Shown here: positions 3,855-44,835 of the stretch, piece after piece
Layout of the letters: every line of letters starts with the position of its first letter
How positions within the stretch are numbered: the stretch's first letter is position 1
NCBI GenBank assembly: GCA_043811005.1
Contig: JBDRNO010000218.1
Coordinates: 6,925 to 70,924 of the forward strand
Source of the DNA: Bacteroidota bacterium
GTDB lineage: Bacteria > Bacteroidota > Bacteroidia > NORP154
DNA: 64,000 nucleotides
Direction of reading: 5' to 3'
Notes under the pieces: model-generated
What the model was told of the DNA's origin: nothing
What the model saw: the letters and a program-made list of their open reading frames with translations, nothing else
Database searches by the model: none
Position numbers and translations under genes: made by a program

Positions 3855-4679
3855 CTATTTCAGTTTTGTTATTTGCCGATTAGCCATAAGCGATTTCATT
3901 TGGGTAATTGCTATTTGGTTCAATTGCTTCAATCGTTCAGGTTGGGATAAGCCTTGATTTATCAGTACTGCATTGATGCTTTCCATATTAGAAAGCACCA
4001 CCAATTGTTCAATAGTTGCTTCATCCCTGATGTTACCTTGTTTCTCAGGATTGGCATCCCGCCACTGCTTTGCTGTCGAACCGAATAAAGCTACATTTAG
4101 CATATCTGCTTCATTGGAATATACATAGTTTATCTGGTTTTTACTCAACTCTTTTGGAATAAGATTCTCTTTGATGGCATCGGTATGGATATGATAATTT
4201 ATTTTAGCAAGGGTTCGTTGCAAATTCCATTCAAGTTTTAGCCGGTCGTTTTCATCTTCCTTAAGTCGTTGGAATTCTTTGATAAAATAAAATTTAAATT
4301 CAGCACTTATCCATGTGGCAAATTCAAAAGCAATATCACGATGTGCAAAGGTTCCTCCATATCTTCCTGATTTAGATGTAATTCCAATTGCATTGGTGGT
4401 TTCTATCCATTTTTGCGGGGTAAGTGTGAAACTATTGGAGCCAGATTCATTTTTAAAAGCATCGAATTCGATGCTTTTAAAATTTGGATTATTCAATTGC
4501 TCCCATAATCCACAAAACTCTATAGCACTACGGGTACGAATCCAATTTTGAATAATGTAGTTCGTACGATCAGCATCTTTGTATCTTGCCATATCGGTCA
4601 GTGAAATGTAATCTGCTGACTTATCGGCAAACAATGCTATTTCCCGGCCTTTTACAATGATTGTCTTGTTTTTTGCCAT
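3855..4679 (-). CDS. KilA-N domain protein
   Basis: MAKNKTIIVKGREIALF..DYISLTDMARYK...NWIRTRSAIEFCGLWEQLNNPNF...GRYGGTFAHRDIAFEFATWIS matches the Bacteroidota KilA-N family often embedded in R-M loci. Start placed at the MAKNK ATG (4679). The track ORF extends to 4715 but would overlap the helicase 3' end. Confidence 0.75.
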   Translation of the reverse strand: MAKNKTIIVKGREIALFADKSADYISLTDMARYKDADRTNYIIQNWIRTRSAIEFCGLWEQLNNPNFKSIEFDAFKNESGSNSFTLTPQKWIETTNAIGITSKSGRYGGTFAHRDIAFEFATWISAEFKFYFIKEFQRLKEDENDRLKLEWNLQRTLAKINYHIHTDAIKENLIPKELSKNQINYVYSNEADMLNVALFGSTAKQWRDANPEKQGNIRDEATIEQLVVLSNMESINAVLINQGLSQPERLKQLNQIAITQMKSLMANRQITKLK

Positions 4680-15595: not shown

Positions 15596-15767
15596 GAGAT
15601 TCCTCTCCGCCAGCCGGCGGATCGGAATGACAGTCTTATTTAGAGTAAGGGGTGGGGGTAAGGGCGCGCTTTGCGCGCCCTTACTCCCACTTTCCCAACA
15701 TAACATAGTTGTCATTCCGAACGTAGCGAGGTCCCTCGTTCCTTGGGATAAACTCCGTGAGGAATCT
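15596..15767. repeat. Composite GC-rich REP-like palindromic element
   Basis: Outer arms gagattcctc..tccgccagccggcgga..tcggaatgacag (15596-15633) and gtcattccga...gtgaggaatct (15711-15767) are inverted at their termini. Central 18-bp stem gtgggggtaagggcgcgc-ttt-gcgcgcccttactcccac (15652-15690, one mismatch). A related copy lies at 26727-26769. Confidence 0.7.
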
Positions 15768-20343: not shown

Positions 20344-20482
20344 GTTACTGGTTACTGGGTGCTGAGTACTGGTAGTAATCACTTCATAAAAAATGTTATC
20401 AAAATAAACCAGAAACCAGTTACCAGCCTTCGCAGGCAGTAGCCTGCTTTGGCAGGCGAAGGCCAGCAGCCAGAAACTGTAA
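20344..20482. repeat. Word-hairpin repeat plus GC-rich palindrome
   Basis: Arm ttactggttactgggtgctgagtactggta (20344-20373) faces arm aaccagaaaccagttaccag (20406-25). It is followed by ccttc-gcaggc-agta-gcctgc-tttg-gcaggc-gaagg (20426-20461). Confidence 0.7.
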
Positions 20483-26513: not shown

Positions 26514-26726
26514 GGCTTTGCGGGAGGATAAAACATTGCAATGGAGCGATGCGGAATTCACGAGGCATATTCGCTTAATTAAAAATCCTTTATTATCAAG
26601 TGTTTCCGATGAGTTTCACCTCAAATATTACCCCAAAACTGAACTAAATAGCACTATTTCGGGGTAATGTTTTCCTAATAGTGTTCTTTTCGCCAGATTA
26701 ATATAAAAATTGCTGTTCATTACCGG

Positions 26727-26769
26727 GAGATTCCTCACTCCTCCGCCAGCTGGCGGATCGGAATGACAG
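26727..26769. repeat. GC-rich REP-like element (gagattcctc..tccgccagctggcgga..tcggaatgacag)
   Basis: Near-identical to 15596-15633. Contains palindrome 26742-26757. Abuts the 5' end of the transposase ORF. Confidence 0.75.
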
Positions 26770-30003: not shown

Positions 30004-30360
30004 ATGAAAAATGAAAGCATTTTTAAGAAAGTCATCTATGCAGGCGTAGGATTGGCTGCAGTAACTGTTGACAAAATTGAAGAAACTGTTAACGAACTCG
30101 TTGATAAAGGAAAACTTTCCGACAGCGAAGGCAAAAAAATCGTTAAAGATTTCTTCGCAAAAACAGATGAAAAAAGAGAAGAATTCGAAGAAAAATTAAA
30201 AACGACAGTAAAGGAGGTCGTTGATAAGTTCAATTTCCTCAAAAAGGATGATTACGAAGTTTTAAAGAAGCGGGTAAAAGAACTGGAAGATGAGTTGGCA
30301 AAGAAAACAGACGATAGTAAAACTTCTCCCGGTAAAGTAAAAGCTACTGTTGTTAATTAA
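30004..30360 (+). CDS. Phasin-family-like coiled-coil protein
   Basis: 118 aa; GVGLAAVTVDKIEETVNELVDKGKLS..EGKKIVKDF resembles COG3937 phasin-like proteins. Followed by a terminator. Confidence 0.45.
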   Translation: MKNESIFKKVIYAGVGLAAVTVDKIEETVNELVDKGKLSDSEGKKIVKDFFAKTDEKREEFEEKLKTTVKEVVDKFNFLKKDDYEVLKKRVKELEDELAKKTDDSKTSPGKVKATVVN

Positions 30361-30820: not shown

Positions 30821-32555
30821 ATGATAACCATCCAGACTTTTAAAAATATTAAGCGAATACAAAAGATCATACAGGTTTTAATAAAGTATGGTTTTGAAGA
30901 GGTAGTAACGCATACTCCGTTAAAGCAGTTGGTCCCTAAAAAATTGCGATTATCCTGGTTACGGCAGTCTAGACCTGTCTTTGAATATACAGTCTGGGAG
31001 CGCATCAGGATGGTCTTTGAAGAGTTGGGGGCTTCATTCGTCAAACTAGCACAAGTATTAAGTAACCGTACGGATATGCTGCCCGAACCATTGCTCAAAG
31101 AATTTGAAAAACTCCAGGATAAAGTCCCCCCTTTTGAATTTAGTATAGTTAAATCTATAATTGAGAAAGAGACAGGGAAAAAACTTGAAGATACTTTTGA
31201 ATGGTTTGACCAAACACCTCTCGCATCAGCATCTATAGGTCAGGTACACCGTGCAAGATTATCCTCCGGAGGCAGATCCATGCCTACCGACAAGCAAGGC
31301 GCCTTCGGCGGGAATGAGGGGAGATGTTGTTGTTAAAGTACAACGTCCAGGAGTAAAAGAGATAATAAATACTGATATTGACATTCTGACTGAAATCGCC
31401 AGACGGGGTGAGAACTATTTTGAAAAGAATGGTATTACTAATGTTCTTGACGTTGTGAACACTTTTAAGAAAACCATACAAAAGGAGCTGGATTACAACA
31501 GTGAAGCCAGAAATATTGAGCAATTTCGTTTGTATTATATAAATAACAAGAATTTCTACGTGCCTTATGTATATAAAGAAATTTCAACCGACAAGGTTTT
31601 GATAACGGAATTTGCTGAGGGTTGTAAGATAACTGATCTTGAACAATTAAAGGAATGGGGAATTGATCATGTGCAGTTAGCCGAAACTGGCATGCACATC
31701 TATTTATCTCAAATTTTTGAACATGGATTTTTCCATGCCGATCCTCATCCCGGTAATATCATCATCAAAAAAGACGGAGTTATTTGCCTTATAGACTTCG
31801 GAATGTCAGGTAAATTGATAAAAAGGGATAAATATGCGTTTGCAGGATTATTTATAAGCATGGCTCAGCAAAACCCTCAGCGGATGGCTGATAATTTTCA
31901 ACGGCTTGCCATTACACATCAGATAACGAACAGAAAAGTTTTTGAAAGTGACTTGAACGACATCATCGAGGATTTTACCATGCTGGATGTTAGTGAAAGC
32001 AATATGGCTGAACTAGCGGTACGTTATCAGAAAATTATTTATGACTATAAAATGAAAGTACCTGGGGGTGTTTTCCTGATACTTCGCGCATTGGCAATCC
32101 TTGAAGGTATAGGCAAAACTCTGCACCCTACTTTGAACATATTTGAGTTTGTAAAGCCGTACGGAGCCAAACTACTTAAAGAACAATATTCAATTGGGAA
32201 TATTTCGGAAGAAATTATATACCGGTTTACTCAATTTGATTATTTCCTGAGAAGTTTCCCCCGTGAAATGAATGATATTTTGAGAAAAATCAGAAAAGGA
32301 GAACTACATATTGAAGTTGAAGATAAAAAACACGACCATTTCAGAAAAAAAATGGAGATTGTAGCAAACCGGCTTATTCTGGCTTTTATAATAGGAACAC
32401 TTATTATAGCATCTTCAATAATGATGACCACTGATCATACCTCTGGAATTACTACTTCAAACGGCATACCTTACTTCAGCATATTCGGATTCTCTTTATC
32501 GGCTTTTTTGGGATTTATATTATTTGTTTCTATGTGGAGAAGCGGGGGGGAATAA
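30821..32555 (+). pseudogene. ubiB: UbiB/ABC1 (AarF) family atypical kinase, reading frame broken by a GC-rich insert
   Basis: ORF 30821..31336 carries ..LASASIGQVHRARL. ORF 31251..32555 continues in the +1 frame with ..GDVVVKVQRPGV...HADPHPGN...IDFG. In intact family members about 5 residues separate these motifs; here 58 nt (31262-31319, much more GC-rich than its flanks) intervene. Confidence 0.75.
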
Positions 32556-32580: not shown

Positions 32581-33180
32581 TCAGAACGGAATATGAATTA
32601 TCCCAATCTGGATCAATCCAACCATAAAACCTACAACAGCACCTATAAATTCGATGAATCTGAACTCACTTTCAAGAATGTCCAAAATCAGCTTTTCCAA
32701 TTGTGCGGTAGAAAAGACAGCAACTTTCTGCCGGATTATTTCCTCGATATCTAAAGAAGCTTCAATATTAGCAACAGTCTGGTCAATCATCTCAGGTGCT
32801 ATTTTATTCATCTCGTTCATAAATTCCTGTTTTATTTTTATTTTGGATTTCTTTCTTACGAATAAAGATATCACCGGATATTTGGATGGAAAAGTGTTTT
32901 CGAGGTAGTCCTCGAGTTTTCTTTCAATATTTTGATTGATCTGAGCAACATTTTTGGGGTGTTTGATGATCGCCTGAATTTCTTTAACGGATAACAGGTC
33001 ATCCGCAACAAGTTTACCGATCTTTACAGCCAATAACTGCTGCCTTTTAGGAAACACTCCCTGTATTTCGAAAAACAGGATCTTTACCTTCTTCCGGGGA
33101 TGAAATAACATTTTAACCGCCAGAAAATTTGTAAACCAACCTATTACGGCTGCGATTATCGGAAGTGTATAGATGAACAT
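32581..33180 (-). CDS. DUF445-family membrane protein
   Basis: 199 aa; IGWFTNFLAVKMLFHPRK...GVFPKRQ pattern. Confidence 0.55.
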   Translation of the reverse strand: MFIYTLPIIAAVIGWFTNFLAVKMLFHPRKKVKILFFEIQGVFPKRQQLLAVKIGKLVADDLLSVKEIQAIIKHPKNVAQINQNIERKLEDYLENTFPSKYPVISLFVRKKSKIKIKQEFMNEMNKIAPEMIDQTVANIEASLDIEEIIRQKVAVFSTAQLEKLILDILESEFRFIEFIGAVVGFMVGLIQIGIIHIPF

Positions 33181-43531: not shown

Positions 43532-44835
43532 TCAAAAGCATGAACTTTTTTCTTTTTCCTTATTTTTAATTTCCCAAAAATACCAATCCCTCAATCCCCA
43601 TAATCCTTTAATCCCCCAATCCCCCAAAACATCATCAACACTTTTTGCATCTTCAAAAAAAGAGAGAATTTGCTGCAATACTTCATCAACGGTTGCATCG
43701 GGGCAGGATGCTCCGCTGGTGAGGATAATATCAACGTGTTGCTTTTTAGGCAGAAAATCCTTTGTTTCCTTCATCTTATCGTTGCGATGATCATAATGCC
43801 GTATCAGATTTCCCGAAAGGATCTCTTTAGCAGATGAAATATAGTATGTTTTTCCGGTGTACCGTGATTCGCATAATTCAACAAGATGTGATGTGTTAGA
43901 ACTGTTGTATCCCCCAACCACAATTGCCATATCTACTTGCAGCTTTAATAAACCGCGGGTGGCTTCCTGGCTATCATTGGTTGCATAGCAGAGGGTATCC
44001 CTTGTGTCGGCAAAATGGCTTTTCATATCCTTCATGCCATATTTCCCGATCATAGTGCTTTTTAGAAAGGTTGCTATCTCTTTAGTCTCAGTAGCGAGCA
44101 TTGTTGTTTGATTAACCACACCTATCCTTTTAAAGTCCTTTGATGCATCAAACCCATCTGAGAACCTACCTTAAAAAGGGTGTGAAATTCATTAACATCT
44201 GTTTTACCTGAGATTATTCCTGCTAATTCCTTTGCTTCATCCAAATTTTTTATAATTAATGACGGAGCATTTATAGTGCTGTGCGAAAAGGTTGCCTTGG
44301 TTTCTTCATGGTTGTGCTTGCCGTGAATTATTATGGTATAATTGTCTTTCCCGAGCTTTTCAGACCTGTTCCACACCTTTTCTACAAAAGGACAGGTTGT
44401 GTCGTACTTACGCGTGTTTATTCCAATATCTTTGAGCTTTTTTTCTGTTTCCGGCGTTGTTCCGAAGGCGGGAATTATCACTATATCACCGGGTTTAAGC
44501 TCATCCCATTCAACAAACTGATTGCCTTCTGTATCCATAATAAATTTGATCCCCCTTTGTTGCAGGTCACTGTTAACATCGGGATTGTGTATCATCTGGC
44601 TTAGGAGGAATATTCTTTTGCCTGGATTCTCTTCAAGCGCCTGGTATGATATCTCAATTGCATTCTCTACACCGAAGCAGAAACCGAAGTGACGCGCTAT
44701 AAAAAACCTCACCACACCAAAATCCATTACAGTAGGAGAAAAATCCTTTTTCCTCGGATCCTGCTGCCTTCGCATTTCCTTTATTCTTGAAATTACAGAA
44801 CTTCTATAAAATACAGGGATTTTGAATGCTTTCAT
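43532..44835 (-). pseudogene. ispH: Long-form 4-hydroxy-3-methylbut-2-enyl diphosphate reductase, split by a 1-nt frameshift
   Basis: ORF 44122..44835 (..FGFCFGVENAI.., TTCPFV, HGKHNHEE) and ORF 43532..44119 (VVNQTTM.., DTLCYAT, VVGGYNSSNTSHL) are the two halves. Extending the second frame upstream gives GRFSDGFDASKDFKRIGVVNQTTM up to a TAA at 44171-73. The frames meet at the run cctacc-tt-aaaaa-ggg (44165-44180). Confidence 0.8.

Follow-up and report, generated by a model that had tools for sequence, protein, structure and literature searches.

The only UbiB/ABC1 kinase gene of a Bacteroidota metagenome-assembled genome (MAG) is split, as assembled, by a net insertion of 49 GC-rich nucleotides (nt), and this insertion falls on the same codon boundary at which two related proteins carry unrelated extra residues. 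The gene (30821-32555, plus strand, single-copy) lies in a 64,000-nt stretch of contig C218 (JBDRNO010000218.1), referred to here as the window, to whose first base all positions refer unless a contig is named. The MAG comprises 4.6 Mb in 310 contigs, with 38% GC and 83% completeness. The insertion itself is genuine and well defined: its exact net size and position are established, the corresponding site is empty in some relatives and independently filled in others, and in-frame inserts are common in this genome. The gene may nevertheless not be truly broken. The reading that we favour, to which we would give about an even chance, is that a tolerated 48-nt loop insert has acquired one extra base, either as a consensus error or as a very recent mutation.

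The split kinase gene and its insertion site

The upstream reading frame (30821..31336) runs through ..ASIGQVHRARLSSG and then GRSMPTDKQGAFGGNEGRCCC to a TAA stop codon at 31334-36, while the downstream frame, offset by one base to the right, stays open between 31251 and 32555 and reads ..MRGDVVVKVQRPG... The gene does not form a single uninterrupted frame, as the reading moves into the +1 frame over 31271-31319 and the upstream frame meets its stop at 31334; the insert itself contains no stop codon in either the upstream or the downstream frame. Both pieces match the Pfam ABC1 profile (PF03109), scoring 64.4 and 187.6 bits where the cut-off is 22.9. The first match (profile positions 1-54) ends at Gly150 (31268-70) and the second (56-241) begins at the Asp codon GAT at 31323-25. 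Because one profile position remains for the GGA at 31320-22, the excess is exactly 49 nt (31271-31319), with boundaries that can slide by 2 nt owing to GG/GG at the two ends. The insert thus lies between the Gly150 codon (GGA) and the GGA GAT GTT.. of the catalytic-lysine strand, with the +1 frame used from there on. A GC-rich insert with a frameshift had been proposed at this place in an earlier, sequence-only reading, and the open reading frames (ORFs) and the Pfam profile bear this out. That reading's foreign segment of about 49 nt was also right, the 58 nt it gave between the motifs including the codons TCC TCC GGA. The parts of the locus are as follows.

30821..31270, plus strand: N-terminal part of the kinase, codons 1-150, ending ..ASIGQVHRARLSSG (ORF list; ABC1 profile 1-54 over residues 97-150; 76% identity to P0001)
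31263..31272, no strand: 10-bp palindrome CCTCCGGAGG spanning the left junction, also present in the reconstructed empty site (read from the sequence)
31268..31270, plus strand: Gly150 codon GGA, the final codon ahead of the insert (sequence, Pfam)
31271..31319, plus strand: net 49-nt GC-rich insertion, boundaries sliding by at most 2 nt (Pfam continuity, motif spacing, empty site in relatives)
31271..31284, plus strand: small hairpin GGCA-gatcca-TGCC, that is GGCA-N6-TGCC (the sole helix kept in the centroid fold)
31296-305: palindrome AAGGCGCCTT (read from the sequence)
31296..31314, plus strand: AAGGCGCCTTCGGCGGGAA module with a CGCC-TTC-GGCG hairpin, resembling the GGCGCCTYTGGCGGAA module of dispersed repeats (nhmmer match to C240:52339-52385, E=0.023; the link is not robust)
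31314..31316, plus strand: ATG within the insert in the downstream frame, start of a 413-amino-acid (aa) ORF called as P0003 (ORF list)
31320..32555, plus strand: C-terminal part of the kinase in the +1 frame, stop codon included (ORF list; ABC1 profile 56-241; homologues)
31334..31336, plus strand: TAA closing the upstream frame, 21 codons past Gly150 (ORF list)
30004..30360, plus strand: phasin-like gene, an upstream synteny anchor common to the loci of relatives (Phasin then ABC1 in L021, L024 and L025)
32581..33180, minus strand: DUF445-like gene, the downstream synteny anchor (ABC1 then DUF445 in L025/L026)

Both halves of the gene are otherwise intact. The C-terminal part runs in the order GDVVVKVQRPG, HADPHPGN, DFG and two C-terminal hydrophobic helices, and all four catalytic motifs (the A-rich loop ASIGQVH, VKVQRPG, HADPHPGN and DFG) are readable and form invariant columns in the alignment of homologues. 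Relatives of known structure, 5yjz and COQ8A (4ped), are found at E values of about 1e-27 to 1e-29, and after removal of the 49 nt both 5yjz and COQ8A (4ped/5i35) align without a gap over the junction.

Orthologues in the same family-level group (about 62% identity) and in other families show no interruption, each of them having the pattern L-x-x-G-x-[DE]-V-V-V-K-V. Alignment of orthologous UbiB proteins, the means of defining the boundaries that the sequence-only reading had put forward, gave a net 49 nt at 31271-31319, set by motif spacing. Among the best 120 database homologues, 117 have both motifs, and in 115 of these GQV[HY] and [V]K[VI]QRP stand 11 residues apart. Only the removal of 49 nt restores this spacing, and it yields a protein of 561 aa, the length of its nearest relatives P0001 (76% identity) and P0002 (74%), while removing 52 nt, as in a hop from GGA to GGA, leaves a spacing of 10. 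The two exceptions are P0005 (586 aa, from a Cytophagales-labelled NCBI MAG) and P0004 (611 aa), which carry 25 and 27 additional residues respectively (FESTNDEARSTNDEFRTSSFVLRTS and a variant of it), in frame and at the codon boundary used by the kinase insert. Their insert DNA is a near-perfect palindrome of 75/81 nt lying between GGA GGA and GGA GAG and is unrelated to the 49-nt insert. The site is empty in P0002, which is 94% identical to P0004 and P0005. The arm of the palindrome is a repeat of heptamer words that has 28 matches in its own genome against none for a reversed control. The same heptamer-word repeat recurs at the 3' end of the P0004 gene (L023:3200-3279), where it adds about 23 C-terminal residues (..TRMTIYELRMTITMTITSDGCI).

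The sole internal indel of at least four residues in a MAFFT alignment of 119 homologues falls after residue 150 of the window protein, and in a maximum-likelihood tree the P0002/P0004/P0005 group is the sister of the window protein (support 89/94). The simplest account of this distribution is that unrelated sequences were inserted twice, independently, at one codon boundary, although one old insertion that was later lost precisely and whose sequence turned over completely may also explain it. In the AlphaFold model of P0005 (mean predicted local distance difference test score, pLDDT, of 80) the insert appears as a roughly 29-residue coil that links strand 140-147 to strand 177-183, and pLDDT falls below 50 over residues 153-173. 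The insertion site is, on this model, a predicted disordered beta-hairpin tip ahead of the catalytic-lysine strand. A survey of the insertion site across the order (8 genomes) found no further cases. One orthologue (L009, G007:C88:11313-14276) looks fragmented, an appearance that N-rich sequence and ambiguous bases explain and that does not come from inserts. The gene family itself is patchily distributed: a UbiB-family gene was found in 20 of the 41 genomes searched, the present one (G000) included, and is absent from the other 21.

Composition of the insert and its likeness to repeats

The insert is about 63% GC in a window of 36.5% GC and occurs there once, where no copies would be expected. 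A second copy was not found in the whole genome with blastn-short, nor were four 21-22-mers of the insert found in collections of genome contigs and of metagenome contigs. Comparison with viral contigs, plasmids and phages returned only chance matches (E=0.5, to GC-rich mycobacteriophages), and the insert has no match in Rfam. The small hairpin GGCA-N6-TGCC and the palindrome AAGGCGCCTT that the sequence-only reading had pointed out are both present, at 31271-84 and 31296-305. The folding energy of the 80-nt region is not above chance (minimum free energy of -22.3 kcal/mol, where shuffled versions average -23.2; z=0.28), and on this ground the insert was rejected as a palindromic element in its own right. 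It was likewise rejected as a miniature inverted-repeat transposable element, as its ends (GGCAGATCC.. and ..GGGAATGAGG) are not complementary and the only direct repeat is a 2-nt GG (or GGA/GGAG), the extent of which is ambiguous.

A likeness had also been suggested to intergenic GC-rich elements at 15596 and 26727. These belong to a real dispersed family of the form GAGATTCCTC..CGGAATGACAG (also GAGATTCC..CGGAATGACAG), the right end of which, CGGAATGACA, occurs 49 times in the genome, mostly in such elements. The insert shares only GGCGG..GGAATGA with this family. When the insert was aligned with the GAGATTCC..GGAATGACAG family as a gapped chain, the resemblance had p values of 0.01-0.02 relative to shuffled sequences and of 0.01-0.07 relative to real GC islands, so that the proposed likeness is weak, and the best relative is another copy. 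The closest relative in the whole genome is an intergenic element at C240:52339-52385, identical at 31/39 nt without gaps. Its blastn score of 28.9 bits compares with 25.6 +/- 1.7 for a shuffled-query null with a maximum of 30.8, and its nhmmer E value is 0.023. This element belongs to a dispersed family carrying ..CCTGCCTCCCGGCAGGCGAGGCGCCTCTGGCGGAA.. (C29, C309, C218:245 and others), with copies at C29:20651, C309:19158 and C210:11569. A profile that includes the C240 copy finds the insert at E=5.6e-4, a figure that is circular since that copy had been picked because it resembles the insert. When the copy is left out, the profile moves towards the larger TCCGCCTYTGGCGGAAAA family and the E value of the insert becomes 4.6, for which reason the iterative profile was rejected as proof of membership. 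The comparisons are suggestive of an insert that would be, at best, a decayed fragment of a dispersed GC-rich hairpin repeat.

The words at the two junctions were also checked for over-representation and rejected. The right-junction word AGGGGAGAT is not over-represented (26 seen against 21 expected), and the left-junction word CCTCCGGAGGCAG has 26 near-matches, mostly on the reverse strand of genes for repeat-domain surface proteins; both are regarded as coincidence. A few of the CCTCCGGAGGCAG near-matches (C16, C26) lie in an intergenic hairpin element.

Several repeats were recorded in the course of these comparisons. A GC-rich hairpin, CCTCCGCAGGCAGTAGCCTGC..GGCAGGCGAAGGCC, lies between genes at 20419-20479 of the window and at C16:3858-3910 and C26:30190-30230, and over its first 13 nt it matches the left junction CCTCCGGAGGCAG at all but one base. 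The dispersed hairpin GAGATTCCTC(ac)..loop..CGGAATGACAG is seen at 15596-15640 and 26712-26769 of the window and at no fewer than 49 loci in the genome, one subfamily carrying the palindrome TCCGCCAGCTGGCGGA in its loop. A large double-hairpin family, (GTCAGCCAGAGGCTGA)TCCGCCTYTGGCGGAAAATTCCGAT, surfaced while the C240-type element was being profiled, with copies at C126:13430-13471, C11:3120-3164, C103:4068-4111, C237:7213-7240 and C286:13361-13398 and about 30 more.

Among known systems, the nearest parallel is with the Rickettsia palindromic elements (RPEs), which together with other intragenic repeat insertions translated as surface loops have been reviewed (PMC10969869). As with RPEs, a short, probably repeat-derived segment lies inside a conserved gene at a surface-exposed, permissive position, many in-frame inserts exist genome-wide, and in the sister lineage the same codon is occupied by a genuine palindromic repeat present in many copies. 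The kinase insert differs in being, as assembled, 49 nt long, which is not a multiple of three, in being single-copy and not detectably palindromic, and in its occurrence in a Bacteroidota MAG rather than in Rickettsia. With the repeats of this genome that resemble repetitive extragenic palindromic sequences and bacterial interspersed mosaic elements (REP/BIME; the GGCGCCTYTGGCGGAA / TCCGCCTYTGGCGGAAAA family and the GAGATTCC..CGGAATGACAG family) it shares a CGCC-TYY-GGCG hairpin followed by G(G)AA, and members of this kind are also found in frame within genes (for example C175:34329-34364), but the likeness is marginal and the left hairpin of the family is degraded in the kinase insert. The kinase insert is probably a repeat-derived intragenic insert of the RPE type. 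The comparison with RPEs that had been made from the sequence is apt for the genome overall, given its many in-frame inserts and the translated palindrome at the same codon in the sister lineage.

Inserts and frameshifts elsewhere in the genome

The frequency of such inserts was surveyed with 857 long ORFs from 0.9 Mb of the family-level relatives G005 and G001, which were compared with the genome by tblastn and yielded 271 good orthologue comparisons. About a dozen of the 271 genes contain in-frame GC-rich insertions of 9-51 residues relative to the relatives. No out-of-frame GC-rich insert was seen in these 271 comparisons. That the inserts here are kept in frame indicates that they are translated rather than skipped or spliced. 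Several of them contain the word TCCGCCAGC(T)GGC(GGA) or TCCGCCTCTGGCGGAAAA. The inserts and the single-base frameshifts of the genome lie at the following positions.

In-frame GC-rich inserts (survey): C97:1162-1194, C266:23402-23428, C101:16229-16255, C271:18911-19057 (18911/19031), C192:17102-17143
In-frame GC-rich inserts, continued (survey): C298:10682-10735, C175:34269-34391, C19:2942-3094 and 4242-4307, C21:2036-2095, C1:40430-40480
Single-base frameshifts (against orthologues): C205:25292-25301 (25295), C147:40477-40479 (40478, in an A-run), C78:295-307, C105:300-313, C197:2570-2577 (C8 run)

A genome-wide scan for GC islands at which the reading frame switches gave 25 candidates, eight of them changing frame, and revealed no second split gene. 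One of the eight, on C218, is the kinase gene itself and another, on C197, is the frameshift in the C8 run. The remaining six have stops in all three frames across the junction and were rejected as split genes, having the appearance of hairpins between separate genes.

Four to five single-base frameshifts were found among the 271 surveyed genes, a frequency of about 2%; those on C205 and C105 both lie in the PYTYxWN motif of repeat-domain surface proteins. The sole LYTB/ispH match in the genome, which lies on this contig 13 kb away from the kinase gene, is also split (profile positions 3-155 and 144-266), with a 1-nt frameshift near 44171 within 44100-44220 of the window, minus strand (G000:C218:51024-51144), beside a T5/A5 run (..NEFHTLFK / ..FDASKDFKRIGVVNQTT). 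In organisms that rely on the methylerythritol phosphate (MEP) pathway ispH is essential. In this genome 3-hydroxy-3-methylglutaryl coenzyme A (HMG-CoA) reductase was not found and GcpE is present. The ispH frameshift is therefore probably a consensus error in an essential gene, and at least some of the single-base frameshifts in the assembly are probably of the same nature.

Readings of the frame break

It had been proposed from the sequence that one mis-called base would leave an in-frame loop of about 16 aa, and this holds in that 48 nt would read GRSMPTDKQGAFGGNE. In the reading that we favour, a short GC-rich segment, probably a decayed piece of a dispersed hairpin repeat, entered the sole UbiB/ABC1 gene exactly where the beta-hairpin linking the A-rich-loop strand (ASIGQVH..) with the catalytic-lysine strand (VVVKVQRPG) has its tip. 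This tip is the one place in the protein family that tolerates extra residues, and the insert would be found at this sole permissive position because of selection for tolerance. The 48-nt insert would have been translated as a floppy surface loop of about 16 aa, RLSSG-GRSMPTDKQGAFGGNE-GDVVVKV, similar in composition to what is typical of the translated inserts elsewhere in the genome, and one extra base would then have broken the frame, the run of four G at 31318-21 being one possible site. We infer that the insert was at first in frame and that a single base is either spurious or recent. A gene-killing insertion at a random place in a gene of 1.68 kb would have a chance of only about 0.3% of falling on this codon boundary.

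Several points weigh against this account. The survey implies an indel rate of about 2e-5 per nt, which gives a prior of about 1e-3 for any given 50-nt stretch, and about 0.2 such indels would be expected over all the inserts of the genome. No same-species sequence with an in-frame version was found in the collections searched, in which the best non-self match is 76% identical. An insertion mechanism that prefers GGA/GGAGA, which is present within a purine-rich tract at both filled sites, could explain the shared position. That the extra base is an assembly error is something we infer only, and UbiB is absent from about half of the relatives searched, so that a true pseudogene would be tolerable.

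This last point leads to the alternative that a true 49-nt out-of-frame insertion, itself repeat-derived, killed a dispensable gene and left a young pseudogene with no other lesion as yet. It takes the sequence as assembled, with an upstream stop 21 codons past G150, and is consistent with the single-copy gene being probably dispensable, given its absence from 21/41 genomes; since only 20/41 carry a UbiB-family gene, loss is evidently tolerable. The frameshifting of about 2% of surveyed genes would on this account be a normal pseudogene load, and the GGA/GGAGA common to both filled sites could reflect a target preference. However, another copy of the relative's repeat has no GGA flank, which leaves a GGA target preference unsupported for that family. 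The small chance of a random lethal hit on the sole permissive and independently used codon boundary also argues against a direct pseudogenising insertion, as does the contrast between about a dozen in-frame GC-rich inserts elsewhere and none out of frame. We consider this account, the main rival, rather unlikely. The sequence-only reading had called the gene a pseudogene as it stands: it is indeed split as assembled, but may not be truly broken.

It is quite improbable, in our view, that GGA/GGAGA after the second glycine of the beta2-beta3 turn is a true hot spot for the hairpin-repeat machinery of these Bacteroidota, or that a frame-breaking copy is still expressed, whether by a hop from GGA to GGA or as a two-piece kinase. 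Taken by itself, the idea that a real frame break is overcome is very unlikely. It has three forms: a ribosome hop, with take-off at the GGA at 31268 and landing at the GGA at 31311 or at 31320; a +1 shift at GGG AGA; or two reassembling polypeptides, an N-terminal piece of 171 aa and the 413-aa piece from the insert's ATG, the two ORFs overlapping by 23 nt. The gap is indeed bordered by matched GGA codons (31268-70 and 31320-22; a third GGA stands at 31311-13), the take-off codon falls within the 5' arm of the one small hairpin that is stable, and GAGG precedes the landing GGA. For the two-piece form, an in-frame ATG stands just before GDVVVKV with the upstream stop 20 nt later, which makes a restarted C-terminal piece conceivable from the arrangement of the frames, and a surface hairpin tip is the kind of site at which split proteins can complement.

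The gap of about 50 nt, GC-rich within AT-rich coding sequence, with matched GGA codons, a hairpin on the first GGA and GAGG before the second, is reminiscent of T4 gene 60 (50-nt gap) and of the GC-rich 'byps' of Magnusiomyces mitochondria. The published criteria for bypass include a stop or a rare 'hungry' codon right after the take-off codon (bioRxiv 10.1101/2022.08.31.505936). Here the codon that follows is neither, being the common GGC (16.2 per 1000 codons in the long ORFs of the genome), and the gap, at 63% GC, contains premature landing triplets (GGC three times, GGG, and the GGA at 31311), contrary to what is expected of a bypass gap. The product of a GGA-to-GGA hop would have the 10-aa spacing noted above and so be one residue short of that seen in 115/117 homologues. 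The case is also the only one of its kind in the genome, in which the other inserts are all in frame and so are translated rather than skipped, an observation that argues equally against removal at the RNA level. A +1 shift is disfavoured by the common use of AGA (8.9 per 1000 codons). On these grounds of codon usage, gap content and product spacing, translational bypass and +1 frameshifting were both rejected.

An assembly artefact, in which 49 nt foreign to the gene came in through a chimeric read, through a graph path belonging to a different population or through mis-joining at this place, might be suspected in a fragmented MAG of 310 contigs at 83% completeness and of an insert without another copy in the genome or in any collection searched, but it is highly improbable given the clean junctions, flanks that are collinear with orthologues to the nucleotide, the recurrence of short GC-rich intragenic inserts here and in independently assembled relatives, and the lack of any plasmid, phage or viral match pointing to a source of contamination.

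If the frame break were real and the protein still made, this would be a rare case of bacterial chromosomal recoding or a naturally split kinase, which the evidence does not favour. The event is an ordinary one for this genome, one more short and probably repeat-derived intragenic insertion among many. The presence of single-base frameshifts in core genes of the MAG is a warning for annotation, as it makes a 'pseudogene' call for its only UbiB-family gene untrustworthy. For the family as a whole, the findings identify a precise and recurrently used insertion point in the UbiB/COQ8 fold, at the hairpin tip five residues before the catalytic lysine, and its use by two lineages with unrelated inserts at the same codon may be helpful in engineering or annotating UbiB/COQ8 proteins.

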